Shown: piece after piece, positions 25,059 to 41,570 of the stretch | Position numbering within the stretch: the first letter of the stretch is position 1 | Layout: each line of letters begins with the position of its first letter | Source of the DNA: Candidatus Parcubacteria bacterium | Lineage (GTDB): Bacteria > Patescibacteriota > Minisyncoccia > Sungbacterales > SURF-37 | NCBI GenBank assembly: GCA_003599755.1 | Contig: QZJO01000009.1 | Span: 22,140 to 86,139, forward strand | Length of the DNA stretch: 64,000 nt | Direction of reading: 5' to 3' | The notes under the pieces: generated by a model | Databases searched by the model: none | The model's input: the letters and a program-made list of their open reading frames with translations, nothing else | What the model was told of the DNA's origin: nothing | Position numbers and translations under genes: made by a program

Positions 25059-25141
25059 GATGCGGGAAAGCAATGCGTTCCGCTGCCGAAACGGCAGCAA
25101 AGAGTTCGGAGCGGCGCGCGCGGGCGCCGCTCCGATATCGT

Positions 25142-25753: not shown

Positions 25754-25953
25754 CGCCCCCTCCTCGCGAATGAGTGAACTGCCCATGCCTGGCACCAGGC
25801 ATACCCGAAACGAACGACTCCGTCAACCCATGGCGTTCCCGCGCGAAAACATGCCGACATCCCGTTTCGGAATGCCGGCATGCGCTCTACTTCGACATAT
25901 AAAAATGACGTTGCCGCTGCTTCCGTCTTTCCGGGCCAACGTCAACCGCGCGA

Positions 25954-26496: not shown

Positions 26497-26949
26497 TCAG
26501 ACGCCCCAGGGTCGGACGAGGATGAGCCGGGGCTCGCCGTCGCCGAAGTAGTTGTCCTGCCACGACTCGACGACGAACCCGAAGTTGAGGGCGAGCCGGA
26601 GCGAGCGCCGGTTGTGCGGGTGAACCGCCATGTCGATGCGCTCGACGCTCTTGAGCTCCTTGAGCACGAAGTGCAGCGCCACGTGGCCGACGCCCCGTTC
26701 CTGGAACTCCGGCCGCACCACGATGCCGCTGATGTGCGCGTGCTTCGGGCTCTTGATCTCGTACTGGATCGTACCGGCGATCTTGCCGTCCACCGTGATG
26801 AAGTACACGATGCTCGCCGCGAGCTCCTGCCGTGCTTCATCCTGGTCAGTGATGCCCGAGTAGGTCGGGGGGCCCATGACGGAGCGCTCAACGGCCAGGT
26901 AATCGGCGAAGTCGGCGACCCGAGCCCGATAGAACTGGATGTCGCTCAC
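26497..26949 (-). CDS. GNAT family N-acetyltransferase
   Basis: Acetyl-CoA-binding motif VVRPEFQERGVG. AGGAGG lies 8 nt upstream of GTG 26949. Confidence 0.75.
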   Translation of the reverse strand: MSDIQFYRARVADFADYLAVERSVMGPPTYSGITDQDEARQELAASIVYFITVDGKIAGTIQYEIKSPKHAHISGIVVRPEFQERGVGHVALHFVLKELKSVERIDMAVHPHNRRSLRLALNFGFVVESWQDNYFGDGEPRLILVRPWGV

Positions 26950-27077
26950 CGGTCGTTCCTCCTTTCGGTAGATGAACGTCAGCGGATGAACTTCCTGCCT
27001 GCAGCAGTACCGCAAACGGACCGAAAACGCAATCGAACAGGGGCTGCGGCGTTCTCTATGTTAACCATCGATCCGGC

Positions 27078-27160
27078 TTATTCTGGCGTTCTTAAGAATT
27101 TGAGAATGAATTGCCGTGTGCGGGAGGGCGCTATTTCCGCTGTCCCCTCTGTTGGTTTTC
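27078..27160. repeat. Island repeat R1, carrying a 28-bp palindrome around TTCTTAAGAA
   Basis: ATTCT-GGCG-TTCTTAAGAA-TTTG-AGAAT, followed by a CTGTCCCCT block. It is related to R2-R5. Confidence 0.6.
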
Positions 27161-27499
27161 CTTAAGACGGGCGCGGATGATCTTTTTGATGAGTGCGGTG
27201 GGAACCTTCGCGCCGCGGGGAATCTGCAGCGTGCTCGCGACCACCTTTTGCGCGGCGAGCTCTTTTTTGAATGTCTTTTTGTCTTTGGCGCTAATCCAGA
27301 AAAAACTGCAGTGATTTTTGAATGCGGCAAAATACGCCAGCCGGCCGTTCTGGCTGTAGTACGGCATATGGTAGCTGATCGACTCTTTGGCTTTGGGCGC
27401 GGCGGCCCTGATCGTCCGGCGCAATTCCCGCAACGTGCCGCGGGCCCACGGCGGGGCTGAAGTAATGTAGGCGGTTACGGTTTTGGGGTTGGGGTTCAT
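27131..27499 (-). CDS. DUF1801-domain protein
   Basis: 122 aa matching the YdhG/DUF1801 fold family. Lower GC than the flanking core. Confidence 0.55.
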   Translation of the reverse strand: MNPNPKTVTAYITSAPPWARGTLRELRRTIRAAAPKAKESISYHMPYYSQNGRLAYFAAFKNHCSFFWISAKDKKTFKKELAAQKVVASTLQIPRGAKVPTALIKKIIRARLKENQQRGQRK

Positions 27500-27528
27500 G
27501 GCGTTCGGCTCATTGTCATGTACCGTTT

Positions 27529-27912
27529 TTACGTTTTGCGTGAGTGCCGCTTAAGCCAGGCAGCGATGTCCGCTATGGATTCCTTCTTCATAGCTACCCG
27601 AACCATGAAGCGCACGATTTCGTTGTTCGGCGCGCTGAATTCGTAACGATTCAAGAATAAAAAGCGCGCCGCCGCTGCAATCGCCGTGCGCTTATTGCCA
27701 TCCACGAAGACGTGGTAATTCGCAATCGCTTCAAGGTAGACGGCGGCTCTGGCGAATATATCGCGATATAACTTCTTGCCGCCGAATGCCGCCTTGGGCT
27801 TATCGGCTAGAGCGGCGAACAGTCCAACGTCGCGCACGCCATGCAAGCCGCCGGTCTCGTCGATGATTTCCGAGTGAATGATGAGGATATCCTCGGCGCT
27901 TAGGTGGCGCAT
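27529..27912 (-). CDS. doc: Doc (death-on-curing, Fic-fold) toxin
   Basis: Fic/Doc core around HVFVDGNKRTAIAAAARFL, immediately downstream of the antitoxin. Confidence 0.8.
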   Translation of the reverse strand: MRHLSAEDILIIHSEIIDETGGLHGVRDVGLFAALADKPKAAFGGKKLYRDIFARAAVYLEAIANYHVFVDGNKRTAIAAAARFLFLNRYEFSAPNNEIVRFMVRVAMKKESIADIAAWLKRHSRKT

Positions 27913-27916
27913 AGGA

Positions 27917-28147
27917 TCAGCGCTTCGCGAGCGCTTCGAGCGCCGGGCGATAGCGCTCGATAAACTTGCGGGTCCAGTCGAGCGTTTCGCGATCCACGGT
28001 TTTGTGCGGCTTGATCACCACCGACGCCTGTTTTTTGTTTATCTCAACGGAAACCCGATCCCCCACTTTGAGCCCGAGTTCTTCGAGCGTGCGTTTCGGG
28101 ATGGTCACGGCGGCCGAGCTGCCGACTTTGAGCACTTTTTGGGTCAT
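27917..28147 (-). CDS. AbrB/MazE/SpoVT-fold antitoxin (Phd-like partner of Doc)
   Basis: 76 aa with a swapped-hairpin beta-barrel signature (KVGSSAAVTIPKRTLEELGLKVGDRVSV). It lies 5 nt upstream of doc. Confidence 0.75.
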   Translation of the reverse strand: MTQKVLKVGSSAAVTIPKRTLEELGLKVGDRVSVEINKKQASVVIKPHKTVDRETLDWTRKFIERYRPALEALAKR

Positions 28148-28267
28148 ATCATGAATTATAACAATATTATAATATCGTATTCAACATAGCGCCCATCAAG
28201 TGATGACGTCAAATAGCGATATTCCATTTCTCCTGTCTTTGTAAGAAGTTCGTAAAAAGCTATCCAA

Positions 28268-28320
28268 GCTTATTCTCAAGTTCTTAAGAACATGAGAAGA
28301 AGAGTGTTGCGGGAGCTACA
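28268..28320. repeat. Island repeat R2, with a perfect 12-bp palindrome GTTCTTAAGAAC
   Basis: TTATTCTCAAGTTCTTAAGAACATGAGAAGAAG forms a 26-bp near-palindrome centred on TTAA, in the Phd/Doc upstream region. Confidence 0.6.
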
Positions 28321-28636
28321 CGCGGATTTCGAGGGAGAATGGAATCGTCTGGCCGGCTACGATCCCCTCTCTTTTGCGCATTTCGGCCTTGAGCGGCAGA
28401 AGGTAAGCGCCGGCTTTGGTATCGGGAAAGATTGAAGTCCGCCATTTGCTTTTGCCGATTGTGACGTTGACCGGCAGCGAGCCCCACCCTCGCTTTATCA
28501 CGCCGAACACTTTCTTGATCTCATCGGATTGCTTTTTCGGCAAGGTCACGAAATGCCACCCCGCCATGCCGGGATAAAGCCATACTTTCGCCCGCATCTC
28601 GTAGCGGGTTTTCGGTGTGCGTTTGGAGGACTGCAT
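28316..28636 (-). CDS. DUF1905-domain protein
   Basis: 106 aa matching DUF1905 small proteins. Confidence 0.55.
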   Translation of the reverse strand: MQSSKRTPKTRYEMRAKVWLYPGMAGWHFVTLPKKQSDEIKKVFGVIKRGWGSLPVNVTIGKSKWRTSIFPDTKAGAYLLPLKAEMRKREGIVAGQTIPFSLEIRV

Positions 28637-28685
28637 CCGCAGTTTGCTGTTCTACTTTTTGTTTACGGTGCTATCGTCCGCGCAC

Positions 28686-28712
28686 CATTCCATCATTCGC
28701 GCGAATTAGAAA
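28686..28712. promoter_or_regulatory. Palindromic element ATTCCATCATTCGCGCGAATTAGA, copy 1
   Basis: Perfect 12-bp palindrome ATTCGCGCGAAT about 50 nt upstream of the DUF1905 gene start. A near-identical copy sits at 29418-29444. Confidence 0.5.
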
Positions 28713-29332
28713 TACCAAGGAAGAGGAGCAATCCCGAGCAATAGTATGGCGCATCGTATCATAACGCCTTTTTTTATTGCTTCGATATACTTGGGGTGAT
28801 CAATTTTATGCGGCGCATCTTCTACGATAATGAGCTTGGCTCGTTTCGCCAGCGCAGCAGTTTCTTCGCATCTTATTTTCAATTGCGGAAATCTGCGTCC
28901 CTCGACCGCCCCATAAAATATCGTCGTCGGCATCGTGAGGGTTTGGGCGATGGTTCGAGCGCTTCGAGTCCGAGTATCTTCGAATCTCCGCTTACCGATC
29001 AGTTTTCTAACCCAGGATTTCATAGCGGTTCGATCTTCGCGGAAATCTGGACTCAACGAGCACAAGTAGAGTTGTTTGGGCTTAAATTCGCCTGCGGTCA
29101 TAAAGGCGATAACCGCCCCATAAGAGAATCCGAGAAAATAGTCATTGCCAGTTCGATGTTCTCGGTAAAACTTTTTAAAATCAATGACATAGTCCGACAC
29201 CACGCGGTACTTCCATTTGATCGGGACCCCGAAGACTCGAAAACCTTTGTGTTTTAAGAATTTAATTAACCAACCATAATTCCGGCTCGATGTTTTTTCT
29301 TGCCAACCAGGAATGACAAAAATTGTTTTCAT
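28706..29332 (-). CDS. Alpha/beta hydrolase-fold protein
   Basis: 208 aa with GFSYG nucleophile-elbow motif. AT-rich. Confidence 0.6.
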   Translation of the reverse strand: MKTIFVIPGWQEKTSSRNYGWLIKFLKHKGFRVFGVPIKWKYRVVSDYVIDFKKFYREHRTGNDYFLGFSYGAVIAFMTAGEFKPKQLYLCSLSPDFREDRTAMKSWVRKLIGKRRFEDTRTRSARTIAQTLTMPTTIFYGAVEGRRFPQLKIRCEETAALAKRAKLIIVEDAPHKIDHPKYIEAIKKGVMIRCAILLLGIAPLPWYF

Positions 29333-29417
29333 TGTTACCCGCTATTTCTTATAAATCCGAGATAAAACTGCTATGGAATTATTGTGGGTCGTGGATTGTG
29401 TTAATTTCTATTTCTAC

Positions 29418-29444
29418 TATTCCATTATTCGCGCGAATTAGACA
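29418..29444. promoter_or_regulatory. Palindromic element ATTCCATTATTCGCGCGAATTAGA, copy 2
   Basis: Same 12-bp palindrome about 95 nt upstream of the hydrolase gene start. Confidence 0.5.
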
Positions 29445-29523
29445 AGGAGACGAGAGACGAGGAGGGAGAGAAAAATGGATGGAAGAAGATTCGAGGCGGC
29501 GCCAGCAGCGCCGCCTCCTCGGT

Positions 29524-30132
29524 TTACTGTTGCTCCTGTCGCTCGTGGATACCGTAGCGCCGGAGAAGATGCTCGCGTACCTTCCCGCCCTGTTCGTACG
29601 GCACAATGACCGCCGTGATTGGGATGCCGTAGAACTGGTTCAGGAATGTGAAGACGTCGTCCATCTGCTCCTTCCCGACCTTACCGGATCCGCTGCAGTC
29701 GGTGCAACCGGCCGCGATGAGGACCTTGTGCGGCGTCCCCACCTCGTAGACCACGTCGTGACGGCTGCGATCGGGTTCCCAGCATTCCGCATGAATGACG
29801 CGAAGATACCATCCGCGCAGGAAGCCCGGGAACGCCTTGCCGAGCTCACTGACCGTATGAGCGATGAGTGGATCCTGATAGGGCGACCCGGGATACCCGA
29901 CGAGCGCGATGCGGCGAGGCCGACCGTTCTCCTGGCTCGGAACCGAAAGACCGTACGGATGCTCGTCCAGATCGCAGATCTGCTCATGCGGCTTCGCGTC
30001 ATCATATACGATGCGCTGCGCCGACCGTTGCGCGACTTGAAGCAGGTACGACAGGCCAGCCATGGCTGGAGGTAGCGAGTCGCCATTGTGCACGGCGATC
30101 CGCTGGGAGGAGTTGGGCTTAGCGTGTCTCAT
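29524..30132 (-). CDS. Hypothetical protein, high-GC insert within the island
   Basis: GGAGG plus 4 nt plus ATG. Contains W/Y/H/C-rich segments (CTDCSGSGKVGKE) and no recognisable family. A 200-aa antisense ORF with its own RBS exists at 29479-30075, so the strand is not certain. Confidence 0.4.
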   Translation of the reverse strand: MRHAKPNSSQRIAVHNGDSLPPAMAGLSYLLQVAQRSAQRIVYDDAKPHEQICDLDEHPYGLSVPSQENGRPRRIALVGYPGSPYQDPLIAHTVSELGKAFPGFLRGWYLRVIHAECWEPDRSRHDVVYEVGTPHKVLIAAGCTDCSGSGKVGKEQMDDVFTFLNQFYGIPITAVIVPYEQGGKVREHLLRRYGIHERQEQQ

Positions 30133-30214
30133 ACGCCTCCTTGAAAGAGCATTTTTTTGTCTCGAGAGCTATTTTCTATTATATTATATTTATATAAATA
30201 GTCAAGTCTATCCT

Positions 30215-30310
30215 CGCATTCTCAAGAATGTTGGAATGTTCCTGTCCCCTGCTTCGGATCTGTGGATTCTCGGGGCGGCGGCGATGGAGGCGTCGAGGTT
30301 TTTGATGGTG
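30215..30310. repeat. Island repeat R3
   Basis: CATTCTCAAGAATGTTGGAATG ... CTGTCCCCTG ... GGGGCGGCGGCGATGGAGGCGTCGAGG is about 85 % identical to R5. Confidence 0.6.
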
Positions 30311-30446
30311 GATTTCTATGAATTGGTCGAGCCTGCGTTATTGCCTAGGACTAGGAATGTGCAGAAAATACTGTGTTTCAGAGCTTGGGTTGAAAATAAC
30401 CATAAATCCTAGTACCATTGAAACAGAAGAGTCGTTATGCCGTCAG

Positions 30447-30677
30447 ATGTATAGTGGCATGAAATTTGAGTTTACGCAGCATGCCCGGCAGCGCTGTAAG
30501 GAACGACGCATTAGATTTCAAGACGTCAAAGCGGTTGTCTCGAATCCCTCTACGACAAAGATAACTGCAGCCGGAACTATTGAAGCCCGGGGTAGAATTC
30601 GCAGCAAGACACTGGTAGTAATTTTCGCGGTGAAGCGAGATCTGCGTATAATAATTACGGCATATTATGAAGTTTAG
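30447..30677 (+). CDS. DUF4258-domain protein, toxin-like
   Basis: MKFEFTQHARQRCKERRI matches DUF4258. Its stop overlaps the start of the next gene. Confidence 0.6.
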   Translation: MYSGMKFEFTQHARQRCKERRIRFQDVKAVVSNPSTTKITAAGTIEARGRIRSKTLVVIFAVKRDLRIIITAYYEV

Positions 30678-30885
30678 CTACGACAAATACGCTGACGCAG
30701 TGTATATACGAGCGAAGTCGGCAAAGATTAAAAGAACTGAAAAATTTCAGGACGATATTCTTATTGACTTTGATGCGGAAAACAAAGTCCGTGGTATAGA
30801 GATATTGAATGTATCCGAATGGCTATCTAAAGATAAAACTCCAAGCGTGGAAATCGGAAACCGCAAAATACCCATTCCGGCGTAG
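30667..30885 (+). CDS. DUF2283-domain protein, antitoxin-like partner of DUF4258
   Basis: 72 aa with YDKYADAVYIR...DFDAENKVRGIEI (DUF2283), overlapping the upstream gene by 11 nt. Confidence 0.6.
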   Translation: MKFSYDKYADAVYIRAKSAKIKRTEKFQDDILIDFDAENKVRGIEILNVSEWLSKDKTPSVEIGNRKIPIPA

Positions 30886-30897
30886 TGAACGAGTCAA

Positions 30898-30925
30898 AGG
30901 CCGCTCCTTTAGAGAGCGGCCTTTG
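30898..30925 (+). terminator. Hairpin terminator after the DUF2283 gene
   Basis: AAAGGCCGCTC-CTTTAGAG-AGCGGCCTTT. Confidence 0.55.
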
Positions 30926-30940
30926 TATTTCAATCGTCAA

Positions 30941-31055
30941 TCCGGTTTATTCTGATGTTCCTAAGAAGATCGGAATAAATGGAGATGGGCGGAAGATGGA
31001 TGATCGGATCTTTTGTGGGTTTGCGGGGCGGCGGCGATGGAGTTTATGCTGCTTC
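30941..31055. repeat. Island repeat R4
   Basis: TCCGGTTTATTCTGATGTTCCTAAGAAGATCGGAATAAATGGAG...GGGGCGGCGGCGATGGAG combines the R1-type 5' part with the R3/R5-type 3' part. Confidence 0.6.
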
Positions 31056-31066
31056 AGCTATGACGG

Positions 31067-31462
31067 TTAGCTTTGGAACTCCGGCTTCGAAAGATATTCC
31101 TCGGGAATGATTTTCGCTTTGATGGTCTTTGCTCCCTGGAGATAGGCCTTTGCTAACCGATGCACGCCGTCGATGACAACAAGTCGACCGTTGAATCGCC
31201 GAAGGAGGATCGGATATTGCAAGTCGGTGTCATCGACGCGTTTTTGATGCGCTGATGTCCCCGCCTCTCCGCGGATGACTTGCCATGGCGTGAGATTCCA
31301 ATCATCGGTGCCGTCCTGTTCCCAGACCGGCATATCGAAATGCCATACAAGTTCGTCGATCGCCACATCGATAATCGGCAGCGGCAACTCGCGGAGTTTT
31401 ACGGTGTCTACAAATAAATTGAGGCCGGCATCGGTCAGTATTTTGGGCGGTGTTTGTTCCAT
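31067..31462 (-). CDS. ParB/sulfiredoxin-fold nuclease-domain protein
   Basis: VVIDGVHRLAKAY carries a DGxHR motif typical of ParB N-terminal (ParBc) nuclease domains. Confidence 0.5.
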   Translation of the reverse strand: MEQTPPKILTDAGLNLFVDTVKLRELPLPIIDVAIDELVWHFDMPVWEQDGTDDWNLTPWQVIRGEAGTSAHQKRVDDTDLQYPILLRRFNGRLVVIDGVHRLAKAYLQGAKTIKAKIIPEEYLSKPEFQS

Positions 31463-31506
31463 AAAAACATGAGAAGCTGCGGGGCTGATTGAAAGCGAGG
31501 AAATGT

Positions 31507-31625
31507 GACATTCTCACATTCTCAAGAATGTTGGAATGTACTCGTTTCCTGTGGCCTGTCCCCTGTTCTGGGCTGGTGGGTTTGCGGGGCGGCGGCGATG
31601 GAGGCGTCGAGGGGTTTAAGGGGCG
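31507..31625. repeat. Island repeat R5
   Basis: CACATTCTCAAGAATGTTGGAATG...CTGTCCCCTGTTCTGG...GGGGCGGCGGCGATGGAGGCGTCGAGGGG. Confidence 0.6.
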
Positions 31626-32018
31626 GATTTTATGGTTGCTGCCAAAGTGGGACGAGTTCCGAACGATAAAGTGGGATGAAATGTTCGAATTTCCTAGCGT
31701 TTCTCTCGACCAGATGCAGAAATTGCTTGCGCTCCAGTGATGCCGGATCAACATTCGAACCGGCTATTAGTTGAAACTGGCAGAGCAACGCTGCTGGTAT
31801 TTTGTAGTAATGAATGATAATGCCAGCGTGTTAGTATTTGCATTCACAATCTTCGCCATTATAGTCACTCTGTTTTTGCTGCCATCGGTTTTTGGACTCT
31901 ACGCTACGCGCCAACCGTGGCGATTTGAAGAATGGTGCCTCGGCGTTTACGGTAAAGAACGATGTGAACGAGAGCGCCATCTTCTCCGGTGGGAGTTTTC
32001 TGAATTTCAGTAAAAGAT

Positions 32019-32798
32019 TCACTTTCGAGTTCTTAAGTCTTTCAAAAACTTCGAAAATGTCTTCTGTAAATTCGGAAGGCCGCTTAGTGAATCGTTCCCA
32101 AATTTTATCAGTAGAATCGCTCCGGGGACTGCGAAGACAATATACGACAAGAAGTAGAATAGCCACCAGCTTTTATCTGTATACTTTGGAATTACAACTA
32201 AACTACCGCCGAGTCGCACAGCGGCAATTTCCGGTGAATCAATAACTTGCCCGACATTAGAAATCGCACAGAATATTTCCTGCCATCTTTGCGAAACTTC
32301 CGTGATACGAATAGAGGACAAAACTTGTCTGCGCTGCCCGGGATCGATTTCAACTGGCTCACCATTGCCCGGAGGGGTACATTTCAGTGTAAATGCTGTC
32401 GATGTAGCAAAAATTGGCTCGTCTTGTGTTCCCGAAAATTGATCTAGCGCGAGATGATTTTCAATTTCGATGTTGTATTCAATTCTCGGAGATGACCTTA
32501 ACCATCCGATGAATTCGTTTATTTCTTTTTGTTCAACCGCTTCTCGGACCGCTTGAGCAATTTGATCATCAGCTGGATAGAGGATCTCATTCCCCTCTCG
32601 AGCAATTGAGGCTTCGAAACCATATGATGATTCGTTGAATGAGAAGCTAATACCCTTGACGGACGGCGAAATGAAAAAATAACCAACCTCCAAGAGCAAC
32701 GCGACCAGAAGAACACCGAAAATCGGCCAAAAATGCCTAAAGAAAATTTTCAAAAATCTGAAAACTTTCTGGCTAGCCTCGCCAAATTTTGAAAGCAT
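32019..32798 (-). CDS. Hypothetical membrane protein, AT-rich
   Basis: 259 aa with two N-terminal TM helices. No recognisable domain. Confidence 0.45.
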   Translation of the reverse strand: MLSKFGEASQKVFRFLKIFFRHFWPIFGVLLVALLLEVGYFFISPSVKGISFSFNESSYGFEASIAREGNEILYPADDQIAQAVREAVEQKEINEFIGWLRSSPRIEYNIEIENHLALDQFSGTQDEPIFATSTAFTLKCTPPGNGEPVEIDPGQRRQVLSSIRITEVSQRWQEIFCAISNVGQVIDSPEIAAVRLGGSLVVIPKYTDKSWWLFYFLSYIVFAVPGAILLIKFGNDSLSGLPNLQKTFSKFLKDLRTRK

Positions 32799-32911
32799 AG
32801 CGGTTAATCACTTCGGTCTTGTCGTTTCAAATGGGAAAATTTTGTAATATCGCGCAATTTCTTTCTCCCGCGAAGGACTAAAGGACTTGCGGGCGAGGCT
32901 CTCTAGAAGTC

Positions 32912-33763
32912 CTATCTGGCAGCAATAGTGCGAGGCACATTTAAACCAGAACTGAAAAAGAGGATCTCTTTGCCCACTCGTGGTCCGCGCGCAGTATGCA
33001 AAAGATGGTGACGCTTTGATCTAAGACCGGCATAAATCTTTCGAATCTCGGCATGATCATCGTAGGAAACAATCCACCTCACCCCTTTGATGCTTCTTAC
33101 TACTTTACCGACGGCTACATGGTCATCCTTGTCGTAATGGTTCATGTATAAAGACTCGCCTTTTAGATAGTACGGAGGGTCAAGGTAGAATATTGTTTTT
33201 TTGTTCTCTAACCTCCTCGCAATTTTCCGAACTAAATCCATTGCGTCCATATGTTTGACATGGATTTTGCTTTTATGCTTGGCAATTTTCTTTATGCGCT
33301 TTATCAGCTCCTTTTTGTTGAAGCGACAATTCAGCTTGTACTCGCCCGTCTGATGAATATTCCCGATAGGGCCTCCGTTGAGAATCCCCGAGACATTTGT
33401 TCTATTCAGGAAGAAAGTAGCAAAGCCGAGCTTAAGCAAAGGTTCGTTCTCTTTATTTTGAAGAATCGCGCGCTGCCTCTTCCATGTTGTAATATTTACC
33501 CGTGTCGCGCGGATGAGTTTTATCAACTCTTCCGAGCGGTGAACTGCGGAGTACCAAAAAGCATAAATAGCCCTATCCTTATCGTTTATTGTTATCTCTG
33601 AAACGTACCCCTCAAACAAAAGGTGGAGAGCCACAGATGCACCTCCGGCATACGGCTCTACATAATGTCCGTTGATATCGTTGCGCTCACAGATTTTTGC
33701 AATAAACTTTGCGAGCTCATTTTTTCCTCCCGGATATCGAAGCGGTGAATAAAATTTTTTCAT
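32912..33763 (-). CDS. dam: DNA adenine methyltransferase (Dam/D12 class, N6-adenine)
   Basis: N-terminal LRYPGGK (motif I/FxGxG region) and DPPY catalytic motif. Confidence 0.85.
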   Translation of the reverse strand: MKKFYSPLRYPGGKNELAKFIAKICERNDINGHYVEPYAGGASVALHLLFEGYVSEITINDKDRAIYAFWYSAVHRSEELIKLIRATRVNITTWKRQRAILQNKENEPLLKLGFATFFLNRTNVSGILNGGPIGNIHQTGEYKLNCRFNKKELIKRIKKIAKHKSKIHVKHMDAMDLVRKIARRLENKKTIFYLDPPYYLKGESLYMNHYDKDDHVAVGKVVRSIKGVRWIVSYDDHAEIRKIYAGLRSKRHHLLHTARGPRVGKEILFFSSGLNVPRTIAAR

Positions 33764-35136
33764 GACAACTTGTTTGTGTCTAAGCTGCTCAGGAGATCGT
33801 TCGGCTCTTGCAGCATAAACTCGATCAAGGGTATCAGATTCTCGCCTTGTGTTCTCGCATCACTCGCGGACGCGCCTACCTTATAATTATGCACTACTTG
33901 ATGTAGCTTTTCGAGGTCGAATCCACGGAAAGCGTTTTTTGTACCAGTGTCGGTGATCAGCTCGGTAAATTTTTCTTTTAACACGGCAAAGTTGGTGTAA
34001 GTGTTTCTCCTACCATGCCTGTCGTAGAAGGCGGAATGAAAATTGTTGTACGATGCAAGCTCCTTATTTTTGTATTTCGTCTCCGCAACAACATATTTCA
34101 GCACGGCCTCAAATGTAACACGAACAAGAGCAACCTTCGCGTTCGCAAACTGCGAGTTGTCGAGGTTATAACATTCGTTAACGAGGCGCTTTAATTTCGG
34201 TGCAACTTGTTTCCGCTCATACGCCGGTCGTGTCTTTACGGATCCTCTTTTACCCGGAGTGATTGGCGTAGTTGTTGGGAGAGATGTGGGCGTTGTACCT
34301 TGCTCGACCTCTGCTTTCGGCAGTTCTTTTGGCGTAAAGCCATGGGTAGACAACCTCTTGAGAAAATCCCCGTGTTCGTGATCCACATCACCATGTGAGG
34401 TTTTAGGCTTAGCGTTAAGATATGCAACGAGGGCGCTGATATACGAAGTAAACTGCGCTTGATCTAGTATCTCGATAACGTATGCAGGCTTGCCCTTGAA
34501 CTGATAGCCGCACTGCTTACTGTACGCAAACAGACGTTCAAAAATAATGGTTTTGCCACCGGCGTTCCCTTTTCCACGACGCAACAATTTCTTTAGGTCT
34601 TCTTCTCCAATCTTTACAGCCTCGTAGTAGAAGCTAGCGAGCTTAATGAGCCGCGATGGGTTTGAGTCGATCTCGCGTATTACTTCTTCTGAGGAACCGG
34701 ATTGGTGCATTTCGTACGCTTTGAGGGCTTTTGCAATCGGATCCCATTCCCTAAAGAGGCTATGCATGTGCTGTTCTTGGATGCGTCGATCAAGCTCTTT
34801 CTCGTCGCGGTACACCAGCACAGGTAGCTGTTTTATATCTACCTTTGCGAGCTCAAGCCCGTACTTCCTTTGGTTACGTAGGGCTTTGACGGCCGCACAT
34901 CTGCGATTACCATCGCGCACAAGAAAATTCTTGCCTTTTGGCACAACCCACAAAGCTTGATCTGGGTAGAAATAACCACGATCAGAGATATTCTTTGCCA
35001 CTTCTTCAGCCGCCTCTGTATAAAGTAGGTATTCAACAAGATCTTCCTCTCTTCCGCTGCCACTATAAAGCTCTGCGAACCTATGATTATTAGGATCGAG
35101 TATGAGCTGAGTTATATTCTTATATTCGATTTTCAT
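33760..35136 (-). CDS. ParB N-terminal-domain protein (458 aa), translationally coupled to dam
   Basis: ILDPNNHRF ... LVRDGNRRCAAVKAL resembles the ParB NPxQPR and GERRxRA boxes. It overlaps the dam start by 4 nt. Confidence 0.55.
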   Translation of the reverse strand: MKIEYKNITQLILDPNNHRFAELYSGSGREEDLVEYLLYTEAAEEVAKNISDRGYFYPDQALWVVPKGKNFLVRDGNRRCAAVKALRNQRKYGLELAKVDIKQLPVLVYRDEKELDRRIQEQHMHSLFREWDPIAKALKAYEMHQSGSSEEVIREIDSNPSRLIKLASFYYEAVKIGEEDLKKLLRRGKGNAGGKTIIFERLFAYSKQCGYQFKGKPAYVIEILDQAQFTSYISALVAYLNAKPKTSHGDVDHEHGDFLKRLSTHGFTPKELPKAEVEQGTTPTSLPTTTPITPGKRGSVKTRPAYERKQVAPKLKRLVNECYNLDNSQFANAKVALVRVTFEAVLKYVVAETKYKNKELASYNNFHSAFYDRHGRRNTYTNFAVLKEKFTELITDTGTKNAFRGFDLEKLHQVVHNYKVGASASDARTQGENLIPLIEFMLQEPNDLLSSLDTNKLS

Positions 35137-35186
35137 GCTTCGTTCTAGATTTGCTATTCCGATTTTGAAAGGCTAGTACTAAAAGG

Positions 35187-38027
35187 TTATGCGCTACTGG
35201 AAGCCGTCGTACGCTTGTAAGCGCTATGTGCTCGCACAGATTTTGTTTTTACCGCTTCACGACCCACATAAACCCCGTATAGCCCAAAAAGAAATTCGAG
35301 ACGTTCCGCTTCCGTTTTGAATGAACGCTTGCCGTAGCAGGCATCAACTGCACGATCGAGCGCGCGATGTGCTTCGAGAAGTTTCAGCGGCATGGTTTCG
35401 GGATTGTAGAGATCAGCGAGCGTGGCGTTCGGGAATTGTTTTCTAGCATCAAGCACGGACTGCGCCGCTTGCTCTACTTTTTCTTTTTGCTCTTTCGTAG
35501 GATTTTCCGGCCATGGAAAGTTGTTATATACGATATCTTTTGAATAACGGTAGTCGGACTTGAGACGGCCGGCTACGGCTCGGACCCATGTCATATGCAT
35601 TTCGCTTTGAAGAACGCCGAAGTGATAGAGAGAGGCGTTAGGAACGATCTTCAAAAGATTGCTGGCAAGCGTATCCGGTTCGATAAAGCCAATTGGAATA
35701 TAATGCCGCCGCTCAGATGAAACTTCTGGTATGACTAAATATGTATCCTTCGGCATATTCTCCACATGGAATCGCGTCGGCGTTTCCGCTAATTTTCGTG
35801 TCGGAGCGCTTTTGCTCAAGCGACGGAATTCAGCTACCGCCTGAATGCGTCGAAGTACTTCAGGCATGGCCGCAATTTCTTCGGGCGCGGCGTCGCCGAG
35901 CCAGAGACACCAGCGTTCATATCCGTTCAGAAATTCATCAGCGCCGATCCAGCGCTTAAAGAATTTTTCTGCCTTCGGTTCTTTTTCAAGAAATGCTTCT
36001 TTTTCTTCTGGTGTGAAAAGATAGAGTCCCCCATCGATCGGTTTATTGCCAATTCCGATTTCCGGAACGTCCGCAATCGGCTTGCCTCGACTTTCAACCA
36101 GTACATTTGGTGCATCCACGAGATATGCATTAATCTGCTGCGCCAGAATCTCGTGCGGTTCACTGCGGATATCCGCATATTCATAAATACGGGGGCGTGG
36201 GTGCGGGGACGTGCCAAACCCGATAATGACGCAGTAGACCGCAGCTTTGCCCGGCGCTTCATTGCTCCATTTGAACGTCCGATGGGCAAAATGAATCTTG
36301 ATTCCCCGTTGATTGAGGAGCCGCCACAGCACAGCGACCTGTTCGCCCTGGGTAATCGAGTTTGTTGAGACAAAGGCACAGGCGATAGCCGTTCCTTGAA
36401 TGTATGCTGATGCCTTGGCGTACCAGCCACAGACGAAATCGAGCGTCCCGGATCCTGGCGCATTTTGAAAAAGATCCGTGATTTCCTTCCGCTGCGTATC
36501 GGACATAAGCTTCGAGCCGACGAAGGGCGGATTGCCGAGGACGTAGGTCAATTGTGATTTCGGTACGGCACTTTCCCAGTCGAGTGTGAGTGCATTATCT
36601 TCAACGATGTGCGGCTGTTCTGTGAGTGGGAGTTTGGCAAACGGCCTTCCGAAGTGGTCGCCAAGCTCGGTATTCGCAATGTGATCAGCGAGCCAAAGCG
36701 AGAGCCGGGCAATGGCCGCTGGAAATGATTCTATCTCAATGCCGAACATGCGTTCGATGGAAAGCTTCGAAATTTTCGTAATATCAAATGTTCCGGGCGC
36801 TTCACTTCCCCTGCGGATATCTTCTACTTTTTCCGCGTAGAACCGTTTGATGATCTCGAGTTCAATCCGGCGGAGTTCGCGATACGCTACCACAAGGAAA
36901 TTCCCGCAGCCGCAAGCCGGGTCAAGAAGCGCTATTGCCGCAATTTTGTTCCATAGGCGATCGAGTTTTGCATGGCTCGTACCGGCATCAGCGAGTTCTT
37001 TATGGAGATCATCGAGAAAAAGCCCGCTGATGACTTTTAGAATATTCTTTTCGGACGTATAGTGCGCTCCCAGATCATGGCGCGCTTTTTCATCCATCAC
37101 TGATTGGAACATGGATCCGAAGATGGCCGGCGATATTCCGGACCAGTCGAAGGACATACAACTCAAAATATTCTCGCGGATACTGACGGTGCCGAATACG
37201 GAAGATAGATGCTCAGCGAACAGGCCACCATTCACGTATGGCAAAGCGGCTAAATCTTCATCGAGCGTCGTCTGACGCTTTTCGATGGGCGTATTGAGAA
37301 CCTCGAATATCGCTCCGAGATGATAGCCGATATCCGAACCATCAATCTCGGTTCTATCCTCCAAGTACATTTTGAACGAGTCGCGATTGAAAATTCCGGT
37401 ATCATCAGCAAAAAAGCAGAATACCAGACGGGTGAGGAGTGTGCTTATTTCATTGGGTGGATAGTTTGATGCGCGGAGCGCGTCATAGAGCTTCCCGATC
37501 GCGCTTACCGCTTTGATCGTAATCGGGCTTTCTTCTTTGTAGGTTCTCGTCTGGAATCCGAGGATAAACGCAAAGCGACGGACGTGCTTGGGAAAATCCG
37601 AAAGCAGGCACTGGAATTGCTCGATTCCGTTTTCACCCTCTAGATCATAGAGACGGATAAGGATGAAGTTTGAAACAATGATGTAGCGCGGTTTTTCTTC
37701 TTCGGGAAGCGCATCAAAGTACGACCCCGCTTGGTCATAGGCACTGTCAAGATTTTCGCCGACCGATTTATGCTCGACAATGAGGACTCCAGGCCAAAAG
37801 AGATCAATAAAACCAGTATTTCCCTTCAGCCGTTTTACGTGCTGTTGATAGCGCGCAACGGTTCTTCGGCGGATACCAAATACCTCGAAAAATTCATTCC
37901 AAAAAGAAGCGTACTCCGCTTCTCGCTCTTCATTTTCCCATTCACGGGCGAATTGCACCGCGCGGTTCCGAATTTCGTTCCAGTTCAGCATGCACGTTTC
38001 TAATGCAGTTTCTGCCGATAAAATCAC
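35187..38027 (-). CDS. Type IIL restriction-modification enzyme, MmeI family (single-chain nuclease, methyltransferase and target-recognition)
   Basis: N-terminal PD-ExK region with FWNEFFEVFGI...GFIDLFWPGVLIVEHKS matches the MmeI-family signature. The central gamma-class N6-adenine MTase motifs are NPPF (LGNPPFVGSK) plus a SAM-binding segment. 946 aa, ~48 % GC. Confidence 0.8.
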   Translation of the reverse strand: MILSAETALETCMLNWNEIRNRAVQFAREWENEEREAEYASFWNEFFEVFGIRRRTVARYQQHVKRLKGNTGFIDLFWPGVLIVEHKSVGENLDSAYDQAGSYFDALPEEEKPRYIIVSNFILIRLYDLEGENGIEQFQCLLSDFPKHVRRFAFILGFQTRTYKEESPITIKAVSAIGKLYDALRASNYPPNEISTLLTRLVFCFFADDTGIFNRDSFKMYLEDRTEIDGSDIGYHLGAIFEVLNTPIEKRQTTLDEDLAALPYVNGGLFAEHLSSVFGTVSIRENILSCMSFDWSGISPAIFGSMFQSVMDEKARHDLGAHYTSEKNILKVISGLFLDDLHKELADAGTSHAKLDRLWNKIAAIALLDPACGCGNFLVVAYRELRRIELEIIKRFYAEKVEDIRRGSEAPGTFDITKISKLSIERMFGIEIESFPAAIARLSLWLADHIANTELGDHFGRPFAKLPLTEQPHIVEDNALTLDWESAVPKSQLTYVLGNPPFVGSKLMSDTQRKEITDLFQNAPGSGTLDFVCGWYAKASAYIQGTAIACAFVSTNSITQGEQVAVLWRLLNQRGIKIHFAHRTFKWSNEAPGKAAVYCVIIGFGTSPHPRPRIYEYADIRSEPHEILAQQINAYLVDAPNVLVESRGKPIADVPEIGIGNKPIDGGLYLFTPEEKEAFLEKEPKAEKFFKRWIGADEFLNGYERWCLWLGDAAPEEIAAMPEVLRRIQAVAEFRRLSKSAPTRKLAETPTRFHVENMPKDTYLVIPEVSSERRHYIPIGFIEPDTLASNLLKIVPNASLYHFGVLQSEMHMTWVRAVAGRLKSDYRYSKDIVYNNFPWPENPTKEQKEKVEQAAQSVLDARKQFPNATLADLYNPETMPLKLLEAHRALDRAVDACYGKRSFKTEAERLEFLFGLYGVYVGREAVKTKSVRAHSAYKRTTASSSA

Positions 38028-38334
38028 ATATTTGCTGTATTAAATCAAGAGCTCCCGCAAACCAATATGCAGTTGCATGAATTTGGCGGTTTACTTAAAA
38101 ATCTTGGAATATTTAAACCAACGAGGACTACCGCAGCTTACGGTAGTCCTCGAAGCCTCAAAAATTATTTTTTTCTCGAGGGTTTTGTATCGCCGTGTCC
38201 CGGTTTCGGAACTCTCTCTACGACATGCGTGTCGGGATAGCGACGCGCTTTCTTCACGGTCGTAAATTCGCCGTTGCGAGCATCCCGGCCACGAAGAGTA
38301 GTTTTTGAGTCCTTACTCATTACGGTTATGGACG

Positions 38335-38607
38335 CTAGAACGTCCTGCCGCGAAGCCAGGTCAATCCCTCCTGGTCATCTATTCGTCCCCACCACTCTCT
38401 CGTCAAGCCAAAAACGATGAGTTCGTCATTGCGATCGAGATGAGGGGCGAGGCGATCATAGATCTGCTGTGCGCTCAGTGAGGTATCAACGAGCCATACG
38501 GACGTGGTGTGATGCCACCACGATCCAGAAAGGCTTCGAATCGCTTCGTGAAGAGAGCTGTAATCGCGTCCCGGTGAGTGAAGAGTATAGGAGATGATGT
38601 GAATCAC
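38335..38607 (-). CDS. Hypothetical 90-aa protein
   Basis: ORF only. A 51-aa basic ORF follows at 38166-38320. Confidence 0.35.
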   Translation of the reverse strand: MIHIISYTLHSPGRDYSSLHEAIRSLSGSWWHHTTSVWLVDTSLSAQQIYDRLAPHLDRNDELIVFGLTREWWGRIDDQEGLTWLRGRTF

Positions 38608-38830
38608 CTGTTCTCAGATACTGTTGATAGCTGGAAACTGCCGCTGATATGATGGATGCACAGTAAGCGCGCCAATCGACCGGGAGTCAAACTGAAGGCC
38701 ATCATACCATTTCGTTTGATTCCGCTTGGTTGCCTGCGGTACTCAGCTTCAGTGCCCACAAAAACCGCCGCATGGCGGTTTTTGTCGATTCTAAAGAAAT
38801 ATATTTATGCGTACGTCAGGGAGGGGCATA

Positions 38831-39211
38831 TTAATTTAAATCTTTCAGGGAAATACTTTTGACCACGCTACCGTGATAAACTTTTCTCCTGTAATACAAG
38901 GCTAATCCGAGGAATAGGACGGTCAGCGTCGTAAAAACGCAGGCGCTCCACCAAAGAGCGAGCGGCTGGGAGGGCTCAATGGCGTAAGCAGTCCAGAAAC
39001 CGACTGCAATAGGTGCAATAAGCGCTACGAGCCATTGGAACAACTCGTAATGTCTAAGTTCATTCGCTTGCACAAGTTCCATGCCGATTTCATCGGGGAA
39101 TCGGACGGTTACTCTTGTTTGCCGCCCTATATGGGGAGCTGATTTATTATCAGAAGATTCTTCTTTTATGCGCCCGTTCTTCATCTTCGATCGGGATAAT
39201 TTGGTAATCAT
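38831..39211 (-). CDS. Small membrane protein downstream of lexA, candidate SOS-induced toxin
   Basis: Basic N-terminus followed by two TM helices (FQWLVALIAPIAVGFW ... CVFTTLTVLFLGLALYY). It either overlaps the lexA 3' end by 62 nt or starts at ATG 39082. Confidence 0.4.
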   Translation of the reverse strand: MITKLSRSKMKNGRIKEESSDNKSAPHIGRQTRVTVRFPDEIGMELVQANELRHYELFQWLVALIAPIAVGFWTAYAIEPSQPLALWWSACVFTTLTVLFLGLALYYRRKVYHGSVVKSISLKDLN

Positions 39212-39839
39212 CCATCCGTTCGACCTGAATCACCTGAATAACCTTTCCGAATATTTGGAAGTCCCGCCGTAGAATTATGGCTTTATGCTCGGAGTCCGAG
39301 GTAACTGGGGTGAGTACGATGGCATTATTGCCGAATGCGATTTTCTTAATCACGGCATTGTCGTCGATAATGGCAACGACGATATCTCCGGTTTGAACAT
39401 TCTGCGTCATTTCGGTAAGAACGAAATCGCCGTCGTGGATTCCGGCATCTTCCATCGACGAACCGACCGCTCGGATAACATAAACATTTTCACGGCCGGA
39501 GATCAGGCTCGCGGCCACGGGGATATATTCGTCGAACTGCCGGTCGGCAATCACGCTCGGACTGCCACACCCTGCGGAGGCGAATACTGGCACCTGCAAG
39601 ATTTCCTCGCGAGCTGGATCATCTTCGACAATTTGTATACCGCGGCGGGAAAACCGACCTCGTCGAATTAGCCCTTTACTTTCGAGTGCTTTCAAGTACT
39701 GGGTCACTGACCGAATGCTTTTGGCGCCGACTGCCTTTCCGATTTCAGCCAAAGTAGGTGCTTCTCCCCTCTGGGCAAGACATGCCTTAATAAAATCGTA
39801 AACGCATCGCTGATTTGCCGTGAGCAGAGCCGGTTTCAT
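39150..39839 (-). CDS. lexA: LexA-family repressor (S24 peptidase) with an extended C-terminal tail
   Basis: wHTH N-terminus, an Ala-Gly cleavage-site region (ASAGCG), Ser (GSSM) and Lys (IKKI) catalytic dyad context, and a ~40-aa extra C-terminal extension. Confidence 0.8.
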   Translation of the reverse strand: MKPALLTANQRCVYDFIKACLAQRGEAPTLAEIGKAVGAKSIRSVTQYLKALESKGLIRRGRFSRRGIQIVEDDPAREEILQVPVFASAGCGSPSVIADRQFDEYIPVAASLISGRENVYVIRAVGSSMEDAGIHDGDFVLTEMTQNVQTGDIVVAIIDDNAVIKKIAFGNNAIVLTPVTSDSEHKAIILRRDFQIFGKVIQVIQVERMDDYQIIPIEDEERAHKRRIF

Positions 39840-39847
39840 CGGGAGTA

Positions 39848-39884
39848 ATTATAGCATCCACCTTTTCGCATTGCAAGATCCACC
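39848..39884 (-). promoter_or_regulatory. Predicted sigma70-type promoter of lexA
   Basis: On the lexA strand: -35 TTGCAA, 17-nt spacer, -10 TATAAT ending 9 nt before the ATG, so the transcript is probably leaderless. GGTGGAT direct repeats flank the -35 box. Confidence 0.45.
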
Positions 39885-39911
39885 ATATCCTACCCAGCCG
39901 CCCAAGGCTAC

Positions 39912-41254: not shown

Positions 41255-41570
41255 GGGTCGCCCCCTCACCTCCTCCGGTCCTCCCATTCAAATGAGCCGT
41301 GCTCCTTTGAAGCCTCGAAACTCCTCTGCCCCTGGCCGTGTCCTATCAAATAACACGCCGGATCACGAACGGTTCGGCTGATGGGGCGCCCAAGGCCCCC
41401 GACAATGTCCGCCAGGCGGACGCCAGCGGTCGCTGGTACCCTCAAGGGGTCAGGCGGCTTTTTTTATTGCGCGAGGCGGTTGCCATTTCTCCAAAATAGT
41501 GGTTTATTTTCCATAGTCCCGCTCTTCTCAGAACCGTGCGCGGCAGTCCCACCCCCACAAGGAGGAACGC

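Follow-up and report, generated by a model that had tools for sequence, protein, structure and literature searches.

How does a bacterium of the Candidate Phyla Radiation (CPR) come to carry a block of defence genes that differs in composition from the surrounding chromosome and encodes no enzyme for its own mobility? The question is raised by a 64,000-nucleotide (nt) stretch of contig QZJO01000009.1 from a Candidatus Parcubacteria assembly (GCA_003599755.1), in the following called the window. At positions 27050-39900, between a GNAT acetyltransferase gene and the 3-methyladenine glycosylase gene tag, the guanine-plus-cytosine (GC) content falls and genes of restriction-modification and toxin-antitoxin type accumulate. 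With a probability of roughly 0.7, this interval is an accessory-gene island of mosaic structure, put together piece by piece through horizontal transfer rather than inserted as one mobile element. It may be divided into three parts: (i) 27.0-32.05 kb, small modules, apparently transcribed separately, with one palindrome in each gap between modules, (ii) 32.0-38.0 kb, one co-directional string of putative defence genes with an MmeI-family enzyme, the system PD-lambda-5 and a membrane protein (hyp259), and (iii) 38.0-39.9 kb, LexA with an overlapping putative two-helix membrane protein and a small protein of a phage-associated family. The island genes and the two genes bordering them lie on the reverse strand, except for the DUF4258 and DUF2283 genes.

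Base composition and host

The flanking DNA (1-26400 and 41400-64000) has a GC content of 0.600, with a standard deviation of 0.025 among 1-kb segments and a minimum of 0.543. The interval 27050-39900 shows a value of 0.487, its 1-kb segments spanning 0.435-0.552. The drop between GNAT and tag described in the initial annotation thus lies far beyond the variation of the flanks, with the correction that it starts from 60 % GC and not from 65 %. Tetranucleotide usage, the second check proposed there, likewise sets the interval strongly apart: the correlation with the flank average is 0.14-0.68 across 28-40 kb versus 0.83-0.96 outside. The only dip outside the island is found at 46-48 kb (46001-48000), a second, smaller anomaly with a correlation of 0.63 and normal GC content (0.58) around an unannotated 287-aa open reading frame (ORF) at 46746-47609.

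The interval itself is heterogeneous, including a block of 0.62-0.64 GC at 29500-30100, and its genes fall into two classes according to GC content at third codon positions (GC3). Host genes range from 0.66 to 0.89, with 0.89 for GNAT on the left and 0.74 for tag on the right. Five left-hand genes are host-like, namely those for DUF1801 (0.73), Doc (0.69), a MazE-type antitoxin (0.74), DUF1905 (0.71) and the 202-aa protein hyp202 (0.75), and do not stand out in the composition test. The 11 genes that do (0.41-0.59) encode a hydrolase-like protein (0.47), DUF4258 (0.44), DUF2283 (0.42), hyp131 (0.59), hyp259 (0.41), a methyltransferase (0.48), PD-lambda-5 A (0.49), the MmeI-family enzyme (0.52), hyp90 (0.59), hyp126 (0.49) and LexA (0.53). 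From these two classes it follows that the clearly foreign DNA comprises 30.15-39.9 kb and, further left, the 0.7-kb hydrolase-like gene. The earlier proposal of a single island of about 13 kb therefore holds as far as accessory foreign DNA is concerned, but not as one insert: the interval is a mosaic whose left 3 kb are host-like with a nested foreign gene.

The host was approached via the flanks, which encode cell-division and cell-wall proteins (MraW and a PBP transpeptidase) and two guanylate-kinase-like proteins. One of the latter (25142-25795, left flank) is identical to the hypothetical protein C4552_02210 of a Candidatus Parcubacteria metagenome-assembled genome (MAG), and a search of 5.8 billion proteins at E <= 1e-20 returned this self-match only. 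The two guanylate-kinase-like genes (252 and 217 aa) are adjacent and overlapping at 24402-25795, immediately left of the island, the second being the orphan. Exact-sequence look-ups of this protein, of LexA and of GNAT gave no record. A scan of genome collections anchored on LexA revealed no syntenic relative; the best protein, from a Liptonbacteria MAG, is 61 % identical, and none of the five loci retrieved has a further gene in common with the window. Taken together, the flank-gene match, the flank genes and the searches for relatives identify the host as a CPR bacterium of about 60 % GC without a close sequenced relative. Since no close relative of the host is present in the collections searched, the insertion boundaries could not be set by comparison.

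Could the interval be native, ancestral DNA, its low GC content arising from short genes, AT-rich spacers and relaxed selection? The five genes with host-like GC3 and the lack of a relative genome that would show an empty site are compatible with this idea, but the GC3 of the other eleven genes lies below the whole host range and the tetranucleotide signature diverges over 12 kb. Furthermore, close homologues of island proteins are named across several phyla, whereas the flank protein tested has none. For PD-lambda-5 A, 383 homologues were retrieved at E <= 1e-10, with top identities of 87, 82 and 77 %. The few with a source name are labelled Omnitrophica, Actinobacteria, Parcubacteria, Pacebacteria, Moranbacteria, Gillisia or Salinivirgaceae, so that several CPR groups and Bacteroidota are represented. 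This abundance contrasts sharply with the orphan guanylate-kinase-like gene in the flank, and the source names of the closest homologues point away from native DNA, which is considered a very improbable origin.

Mobility and origin

The region does not have the look of a self-mobile element. Searches of the island ORFs against Pfam, NCBIfam and PHROGs revealed neither integrase nor transposase domains in those tested. No tRNA gene is located at a boundary, the nearest ones lying at 17.5 and 49.5 kb, i.e. at least about 9.5 kb away; both statements had been made from the sequence alone and agree with the domain searches and tRNA positions. The island edges show no att-like direct or inverted repeats of >= 11 nt.

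A single acquisition in the form of an integrative element, a prophage or an integrative and conjugative element that has since decayed, would nevertheless explain some features. The proteins hyp90 and hyp131 match the phage families phrog_1090 and phrog_17560, a LexA/S24-type repressor is situated at one end, distant relatives of PD-lambda-5 occur in P2-like phages, and PD-lambda-5 as first described stems from a prophage (Vassallo et al. 2022, PMC9519451). Such an element is nevertheless quite improbable: the genes belong to at least two composition classes that are interleaved, structural, replication and integration genes as well as att-like repeats are lacking, and the LexA protein passes the equivalog cut-off for genuine LexA, unlike a phage CI-type repressor. 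In addition, no relative of PD-lambda-5 A was detected in 2.9 million viral contigs; searches of plasmid and phage sequences with BLAST gave only distant ParB-domain matches.

Piecemeal assembly is thus the preferred reading. That the interval consists of accessory DNA gained by horizontal transfer, with many defence and addiction genes, is supported by composition, by the spread of homologues and by the recurrence of its PD-lambda-5 A-B and MazE-Doc gene pairs elsewhere. The donors were most likely lower-GC CPR or other groundwater bacteria, and entry most likely occurred by recombination rather than by an island-encoded integrase. Some points weigh against this reading. No empty site was seen, and the boundaries are drawn from composition alone. 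The five left-hand genes with host-like GC3 may be native, may have resided there for long or may stem from a donor of high GC content. LexA usually belongs to the core genome, and its foreign-like composition is only suggestive.

The defence string

The restriction-modification and toxin-antitoxin assignments made from the sequence survived testing with hidden Markov models. The largest protein, of 946 aa (35187-38027), is a bifunctional restriction-modification enzyme of the MmeI family (Type IIL/IIG). All five MmeI domains (PF20464, PF20465, PF20473, PF20466 and PF20467; E 1.8e-89 to 6.5e-23) are present above cut-off, in order and on a single chain, as anticipated by the Type IIL call, and represent the N-terminal nuclease, the helical spacer, the gamma-class methyltransferase, the target-recognition domain and the C-terminal domain; the PADLOC model REase_MTase_IIG scores 1182 bits, and the motifs D-X9-E-X-K, NPPF and DPACGCGNF can be read from the translation. 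Judging by its family, the enzyme would methylate one strand of an asymmetric site and cut unmodified incoming DNA about 20 bp away.

Downstream of it, a 458-aa protein (33760-35136) with a ParB/Srx-fold N-terminal and a helical C-terminal domain is followed by a D12-class N6-adenine methyltransferase with a DPPY motif (32912-33763; Pfam MethyltransfD12, E 5.5e-21), the stop codon of the first gene overlapping the start of the second by 4 nt. The methyltransferase matches the PADLOC model PD-Lambda-5_B over its full length (residues 1-279, E 6.5e-116). The larger protein is matched by 17 PD-Lambda-5_A models (best E 2e-17), mostly within residues 1-90, with one C-terminal match at 4.8e-10. Its AlphaFold model, built with 38 homologues, reached a mean predicted local distance difference test score (pLDDT) of 82.7, and Foldseek related the N-terminal domain with probability 1.0 to structures of ParB, Noc, KorB, sulfiredoxin and serine kinases. 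The genes are adjacent and both PADLOC components are matched; hence the pair formerly read as Dam and ParB is, by sequence and architecture, one two-gene defence system, PD-lambda-5. The D12 methyltransferase of the initial annotation persists as component B rather than as a stand-alone Dam enzyme.

PD-lambda-5 was obtained by functional selection in Escherichia coli, where it protects broadly against phages and where its cloning required an mrr-deleted host (Vassallo et al. 2022, PMC9519451). Its discoverers describe it as a compacted system of restriction-modification plus abortive infection, and its methylation was reported to be sensed by Mrr in E. coli (PMC9519451). By analogy within the family, the methyltransferase would mark self DNA and the ParB/Srx-fold partner would serve as the effector. 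Two features count against full correspondence: component A matches mainly over its first approximately 90 residues, and its relatives in P2 phages are distant (about 31 % identity over a third of the length). Because of these, functional equivalence to the E. coli system is presumed.

The A-B pair is conserved in the four contigs fetched for comparison (L126-L129). One of them, the unrelated contig L127, shows MmeI, A and B in the order of the window, together with a helix-turn-helix (HTH) gene and a gene with a weak RVT_1 match; in another (L126), the pair lies beside a Type I system and AbiEii. Across these contigs, identity amounts to 72-82 % for A, 44-57 % for B and 48 % for MmeI, so that A is the best-kept component, contrary to what might be expected of an effector and a modifier.

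The last gene of the string encodes hyp259 (32019-32798; GC3 0.41), a 259-aa protein with hydrophobic helices at the N- and C-terminus according to hydropathy, for which Pfam, PADLOC, NCBIfam and PHROGs yielded no family match.

Palindromes and small modules in the left part

Two families of palindromic repeats punctuate the left part, as proposed in the initial annotation. Family 1 comprises five good copies (R1-R5) and one decayed copy with the consensus yTATyCTSnnRTTCYYAAGAAnnTnRGAAK; family 2 comprises two copies with the centre ATTCGCGCGAAT. All copies are confined to 27.08-32.05 kb, and neither family has a copy in the other 59 kb of the window. From GNAT to hyp259, each gap between transcription units contains exactly one palindrome, and the gaps inside operons contain none. 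The five copies in 4.5 kb correspond to about 15 times the density in other palindrome-bearing contigs (0.64 extra sites per 10 kb). Switches of GC3 class coincide with palindromes: the family-2 pair surrounds the hydrolase-like gene (0.47), and R3 lies between genes of 0.75 and 0.44. Rfam contains no family for the palindromes or their extensions, at gathering or E-value thresholds, and literature searches on the palindrome sequence and topic returned nothing relevant.

The left border is formed by the GNAT gene (26497-27015; Pfam Acetyltransf_1, E 2.6e-14), which has host composition and lies outside the island; like tag on the right, it scores above the curated Pfam cut-off and has host-like GC3, so both border calls stand. 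R1 (ATTCTGGCGTTCTTAAGAATTTGAGAAT, 27080-27107) deviates from the metagenome consensus given below at 3 positions. It precedes a three-gene unit consisting of a MazE/AbrB-type antitoxin (27917-28147; Pfam MazE_antitoxin, PF04014, E 1.8e-12), the Doc toxin with Fic fold (27529-27912; Pfam Fic, E 1.1e-13; TIGR01550, 75 bits versus a cut-off of 38.65) and, as the last gene, a DUF1801 protein (27131-27499; E 5.9e-17). Antitoxin and toxin genes are separated by 4 nt. This is a Doc module with a swapped antitoxin class, judged from the domain content: of the Phd/Doc pair originally named, Doc is retained, but a strict Phd/Doc module was rejected because the upstream partner is of the PF04014 type and not of the Phd/YefM fold. 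The MazE-Doc pair recurs in an unrelated contig (L116) with 75 and 53 % identity.

R2 (28272-28299), whose hairpin fold has a z score of -4.1, is followed by the gene for a DUF1905 protein (28316-28636; E 9.1e-27); both this call and that of DUF1801 exceed the curated Pfam cut-offs and can be kept. The next gene (28706-29332) encodes the hydrolase-like protein and is of foreign composition among host-like genes (0.47 versus 0.71 and 0.75 in its neighbours). Its description as an alpha/beta hydrolase is a weak call, drawn from a GFSYG motif and from sub-threshold matches to Hydrolase_4 (E 0.005) and to an alpha/beta hydrolase in the PDB (E 0.46). The two family-2 copies, at 28684-28710, where the first overlaps the stop codon, and at 29416-29442 (25/27 identical), bound this gene exactly.

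The gene for hyp202 (29524-30132) possesses a promoter-like site of its own (-35/-10 score 11/12 at 30205-30178) and a terminator-like hairpin (29517-29493); the protein has no match in Pfam, NCBIfam, PADLOC, PHROGs or PDB. R3 (30210-30237) abuts this promoter match and is prolonged up to 30320 by a GC-rich extension shared with R5 and partly with R4. On the forward strand follow the genes for a DUF4258 protein, a predicted toxin with the likely start codon ATG at 30459 (30459-30677; Pfam E 5.3e-10), and a DUF2283 protein, its predicted antitoxin (30667-30885; E 1.1e-16). Both domains exceed their cut-offs, 11 nt are common to the two genes, and the families are those named in the original call of a toxin-antitoxin-like pair. 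The role in toxin-antitoxin function is a prediction from the sequence; no PADLOC model matches the pair, and a literature search on DUF4258 jointly with DUF2283 gave nothing relevant. By family, this pair and the Doc/antitoxin pair would stabilise the carrier DNA or abort infection.

R4 (30949-30976, with a GC-rich box up to 31042) lies between two convergent genes, the second of which encodes hyp131 (31067-31462), a 131-aa protein of the family phrog_17560 (E 1.4e-15) with a possible ParB/Srx-like core (SbnI ParB/Srx region, E 0.027 and 0.0013). Its structure model, computed from the single sequence, has a pLDDT of 47, too poor for fold comparison. Of the two ParB-type proteins originally listed, the one at 33760-35136 is well founded by its model and fold matches, while hyp131 shows only this weak similarity to SbnI. 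Kinship between hyp131 and PD-lambda-5 A was rejected, as profile comparison gave no relation. R5 (31510-31537) with its GC-rich extension reaches to 31634, and 30-33 nt of it are 100 % identical to copies in seven metagenome contigs. The extension common to R3, R5 and partly R4 was not seen in the other contigs compared. The decayed copy (32021-32048) lies at the stop codon of the hyp259 gene and has 9 mismatches, with the TTCTTAAG centre intact.

The palindrome in other genomes

The palindromes are not private to the island. A degenerate family-1 pattern was found in at least 120 metagenome contigs, and the counts in this section refer to the matches listed; no viral contig matched. The consensus of these copies is ATTCTCAnATTCTYAAGAATnTGAGAAT, and positions left unconstrained by the pattern are strongly non-random, e.g. 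A at position 7 in 151/160. The loci range from 0.24 to 0.69 in GC content (median 0.43) with a nearly identical site throughout, and 107/127 sites lie outside long ORFs. Gaps with a palindrome are convergent in 21, divergent in 9 and tandem in 69 of 99 classified cases, versus 129, 103 and 489 in the background. The site is retained beside orthologous genes in diverged genomes, and elsewhere single copies are dispersed among housekeeping genes. The related family 2, a sister family with a GCGC centre (ATTCnCnnATTCGCGCGAATnnGnGAAT), is likewise found beyond the window: the 1.1 Mb of fetched loci contain 8 copies versus about 0.1 expected, among them those at L051:2992, L111:1504 and 2525, L094:4471, L067:3045 and L056:378; in L111, the copies lie outside a regulator gene that is bracketed by family 1.

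The commonest neighbour is a gene for a winged-helix protein of about 92 aa of the ArsR/MarR type (Pfam HTH_5, HTH_20, HTH_24). Among 28 distinct genes of this kind, a palindrome lies over the stop codon in 24, and a second one is located upstream in 22, 271-350 nt away and 20-90 nt before the start codon; examples are L056:2074-2404, L060:741-1085, L130:9944-10297 and L132:9943-10279 (loci L006-L125 and L130-L135). The copy at the stop codon is entered in two reading frames, encoding ILKFLR[TI]LE in 16 genes, and in most of the others the stop codon falls within the palindrome or at its border. Three homologues were picked on protein similarity only, of which one is labelled Omnitrophota, one Paceibacterota and one bears no label. 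Each of them has the palindrome bracket (3/3), which independently confirms the pairing of palindrome and winged-helix gene. The family comprises at least 1886 protein clusters at E <= 1e-5, and a query is 76-80 % identical to proteins labelled Omnitrophota/Omnitrophica as well as to Parcubacteria/Paceibacterota ones; genomic neighbours are not conserved. Other single small genes bracketed by two copies encode DUF488, acylphosphatase, DUF218, NYN and DUF3850 proteins.

Neither an intact nor a remnant gene of the winged-helix family was detected in the 64-kb window by profile search and six-frame translation. R2 was considered as such a remnant and rejected, the six-frame profile search giving only E >= 1; for the same reason, a tblastn match at R2 is attributed to the palindrome itself, which translates as ILKFLRT.

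Two arrangements were noticed beside these. In a contig of 67 % GC (L029:2016-2512), a unit of about 204 nt is repeated three times in tandem; in every unit, an AT-rich and nearly perfect family-1 palindrome is followed by a GC hairpin and a TATACT/TATGCT box, and behind the third unit come a ribosome-binding site and start codon. At L134:9089-10282 and, with identical coordinates, in L135, the upstream palindrome is separated from the winged-helix gene by a Y1 transposase gene of IS200 type. This Y1_Tnp gene stands alone: neither the window nor the other palindrome-bearing loci fetched contain a homologue. A REPtron, i.e. repetitive extragenic palindromic (REP) sequences around their own transposase gene, was rejected as a description of the palindromes, as the flanked gene is a winged-helix regulator and the transposase of L134 a one-off, IS200-like insertion.

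Operator or recombination junction

Most simply, the palindromes are predicted binding sites of a conserved ArsR-type winged-helix protein whose gene would lie outside the window. Palindromes of about 28 bp are typical targets of ArsR-family proteins. Operator function agrees with the position of the palindrome upstream of the winged-helix protein's own gene, with R3 lying at an 11/12 promoter match and with retention of the site beside orthologous genes in diverged genomes. Other observations speak against it: sites are not depleted between convergent genes (21/99, with R4 as an example in the island), a copy covers the regulator's stop codon (24/28 of the genes among the matches listed) in two frames, and the 64-kb window holds no winged-helix gene of the palindrome-associated family.

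The alternative is that the palindromes are recombination junctions, so that the modules they bound would be exchanged via a site-specific recombinase acting in trans or via RecA and short homology after DNA uptake. The segment at 27-32 kb would then be a true cassette array, accounting for the missing integrase. In the window, the one-per-gap distribution with no copy in the other 59 kb, the roughly 15-fold density, the exact bounding of the foreign hydrolase-like gene by 27-nt copies that agree at 25/27 positions and the sharp GC3 switch at R3, from 0.75 to 0.44, all fit such an array. Beyond it, single small genes (winged-helix, DUF488, acylphosphatase, DUF218, NYN, DUF3850) are bracketed in the same manner, ORFs enter the palindrome in two frames as cassette ORFs enter attC sites, the winged-helix query is 76-80 % identical under Omnitrophota and Parcubacteria labels without conserved neighbours, and the site is nearly identical across genomes of 24 to 69 % GC. 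However, no recombinase is linked to the sites, and the most similar copies do not always surround the same module, R1 being closest to R4. Among 125 loci, no pair of empty and filled sites was found; the sole informative close pair (L041/L103, 90-93 % identical) varies at a segment without palindromes at its ends. No copy at all lies in the right-hand 8 kb of the island. Synteny between two further loci (L058/L100) breaks near palindromes, these genomes being too diverged for interpretation. Exchange at the palindromes is a possibility to be taken seriously, albeit an unlikely one; operator function is considered more likely, and the two are not mutually exclusive.

A separate reading is an integron-type cassette array after loss of the integrase, a cluster of attC sites lacking an integrase (CALIN), in which the palindromes would serve as attC sites. 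Imperfect palindromes do separate small modules here, toxin-antitoxin pairs and DUF proteins among them, and no integrase is nearby. An attC site, however, measures 57-141 nt, folds into one imperfect hairpin and contains R''/L''...L'/R' boxes, and it was rejected here on length, fold and end motifs. The present unit has 28 bp, and a reading of the alignment shows no RYYYAAC...GTTRRRY ends. In the R3-R5 composites, only the core of about 28 nt folds; the composites form no single long imperfect hairpin and do no better than shuffled sequences on either strand (z -1.8 to +0.4). Moreover, the modules face both directions and carry promoter-like sites of their own, and in other genomes the palindrome occurs singly among housekeeping genes. 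A CALIN is therefore regarded as extremely improbable. "Cassette-like", the term used in the initial annotation, is a fair description of the architecture, but the occurrence of the palindromes in at least 120 contigs outside the island means that it provides no evidence of an integron-like mechanism.

One further idea combines both functions. It is conceivable, though rather doubtful, that the two palindrome families (ATTCTCAnATTCTYAAGAATnTGAGAAT and the GCGC-centred sister) together with the winged-helix gene constitute an undescribed cassette-junction system without integrase, in which the winged-helix protein binds the junctions and, for instance, silences or insulates incoming genes. To judge from the source labels of the winged-helix homologues, such a system would span CPR bacteria and Omnitrophota, and the array at 27-32 kb would be its densest example so far.

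The right part and the right edge

The right part begins with the gene for hyp90 (38335-38607), a 90-aa protein of a phage-associated family (phrog_1090, E 7.7e-22). Strong hairpins with arms of 26 and 23 nt are situated in the non-coding gaps flanking it (38108-38166 and 38747-38796); they are probably terminators and unrelated to the palindromes.

The LexA gene (39150-39839) passes the equivalog cut-off (TIGR00498, 139.1 versus 110.95 bits) and matches Pfam LexA_DNA_bind and Peptidase_S24, and the translation shows the Ala-Gly cleavage site, the GSSM serine and the conserved lysine expected of LexA. Its 3' end is overlapped by 62 nt by the gene for hyp126 (38831-39211), a 126-aa protein with two membrane helices predicted from hydropathy. 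The arrangement of LexA followed by a small predicted membrane protein is thus upheld; the toxin-like nature ascribed to the latter is putative, and hyp126 matches no family in Pfam, PADLOC, NCBIfam or PHROGs. The best genome match of LexA, 61 % identical, belongs to the Liptonbacteria MAG (GC 0.47) and shares no neighbours with the window. At this locus (L001:9968-12159), LexA is likewise followed by an ORF that overlaps it and has a membrane segment at its N-terminus; the next gene was judged nucleotidyltransferase-like by reading. LexA beside a membrane protein may thus recur in CPR genomes, although the membrane proteins lack sequence similarity.

The right flank starts with tag (39912-40361; Pfam Adenine_glyco, E 1.3e-26). 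A remnant of tag, 45 nt long, is present at 41266-41310, where KEHGSF runs straight into EWEDRRR*, which amounts to the internal loss of about 130 nt. Separately, an 806-nt segment with an 8xMP membrane-protein gene is enclosed by two perfect copies of a 22-nt direct repeat, CCAAACCAAAACCGCCCGCAAG, at 40405 and 41233. Remnant and repeat together indicate that the right edge of the island was rearranged.

Significance

CPR bacteria have tiny genomes, mostly without CRISPR, and presumably rely on defences of the restriction type; how they acquire accessory DNA is poorly understood. To our knowledge, PD-lambda-5 has so far been validated only in E. coli. In the present case, a parcubacterium stacks an MmeI-family enzyme, PD-lambda-5 and toxin-antitoxin modules, with no mobility gene found. 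The locus is a defence and toxin-antitoxin island of known systems, notable mainly for its CPR host and the lack of mobility genes.

The palindrome occurs widely among groundwater bacteria, and to judge from searches of the literature and Rfam it is undescribed. Its pairing with the winged-helix gene is the single feature that could lift the locus beyond routine. If the palindrome is a recombination or silencing site, it bears directly on the assembly of integrase-less islands in these lineages; if it is an operator only, the island is ordinary. Overall, the defence island is of an ordinary kind; its host is unusual, and one feature of its architecture is intriguing.

Comparison with known systems

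Like the Type IIL (IIG/IIS) enzymes, the MmeI-family protein unites the five domains in order, the nuclease motif D-X9-E-X-K and the methyltransferase motif NPPF in one chain of 946 aa. Identity to the nearest homologue in the contigs examined is 48 %. With PD-lambda-5, the pair shares the A-B gene order with overlapping stop and start codons, a full-length match of B and an N-terminus of A that fits 17 models. The known system resides in a P2 prophage hotspot, whereas the present, predicted one is chromosomal and adjoins MmeI.

The palindrome and the winged-helix protein resemble the ArsR/SmtB repressors with their palindromic operators of the 12-2-12 type. Shared features are a small winged-helix protein and a palindrome of about 28 bp lying 20-90 nt before its own start codon. 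Metal-binding Cys/His motifs are not evident, however, a second site covers the stop codon and many sites lie outside promoter positions. Like REP sequences and REPtrons, the present palindromes are dispersed between genes, frequently near gene 3' ends or in convergent gaps, and two copies flank a signature gene. This gene, however, encodes an ArsR-type winged-helix protein of about 92 aa and no HUH/Y1 transposase, and the density is low, at about 0.6 extra sites per 10 kb. With integron arrays, CALINs and the pdif modules of Acinetobacter, the left part has in common that short modules, including toxin-antitoxin pairs, are delimited by an imperfect palindrome that ORFs enter. It differs in its 28-bp site without attC length, fold or end motifs, in the lack of IntI and in the single occurrence of the site among housekeeping genes elsewhere.

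As a whole, the locus is best compared with defence islands, in which restriction-modification, abortive-infection and toxin-antitoxin genes are clustered in prokaryotic chromosomes, a concept reportedly due to Makarova, Wolf and Koonin. A Type IIL enzyme, PD-lambda-5 and two toxin-antitoxin-type pairs are co-located in DNA of atypical composition, and the homologous contigs L126 and L127 mix defence genes too. What distinguishes the present island is its host, a small-genome CPR bacterium of 60 % GC, the absence of a mobility gene and the palindromes that punctuate half of its length.

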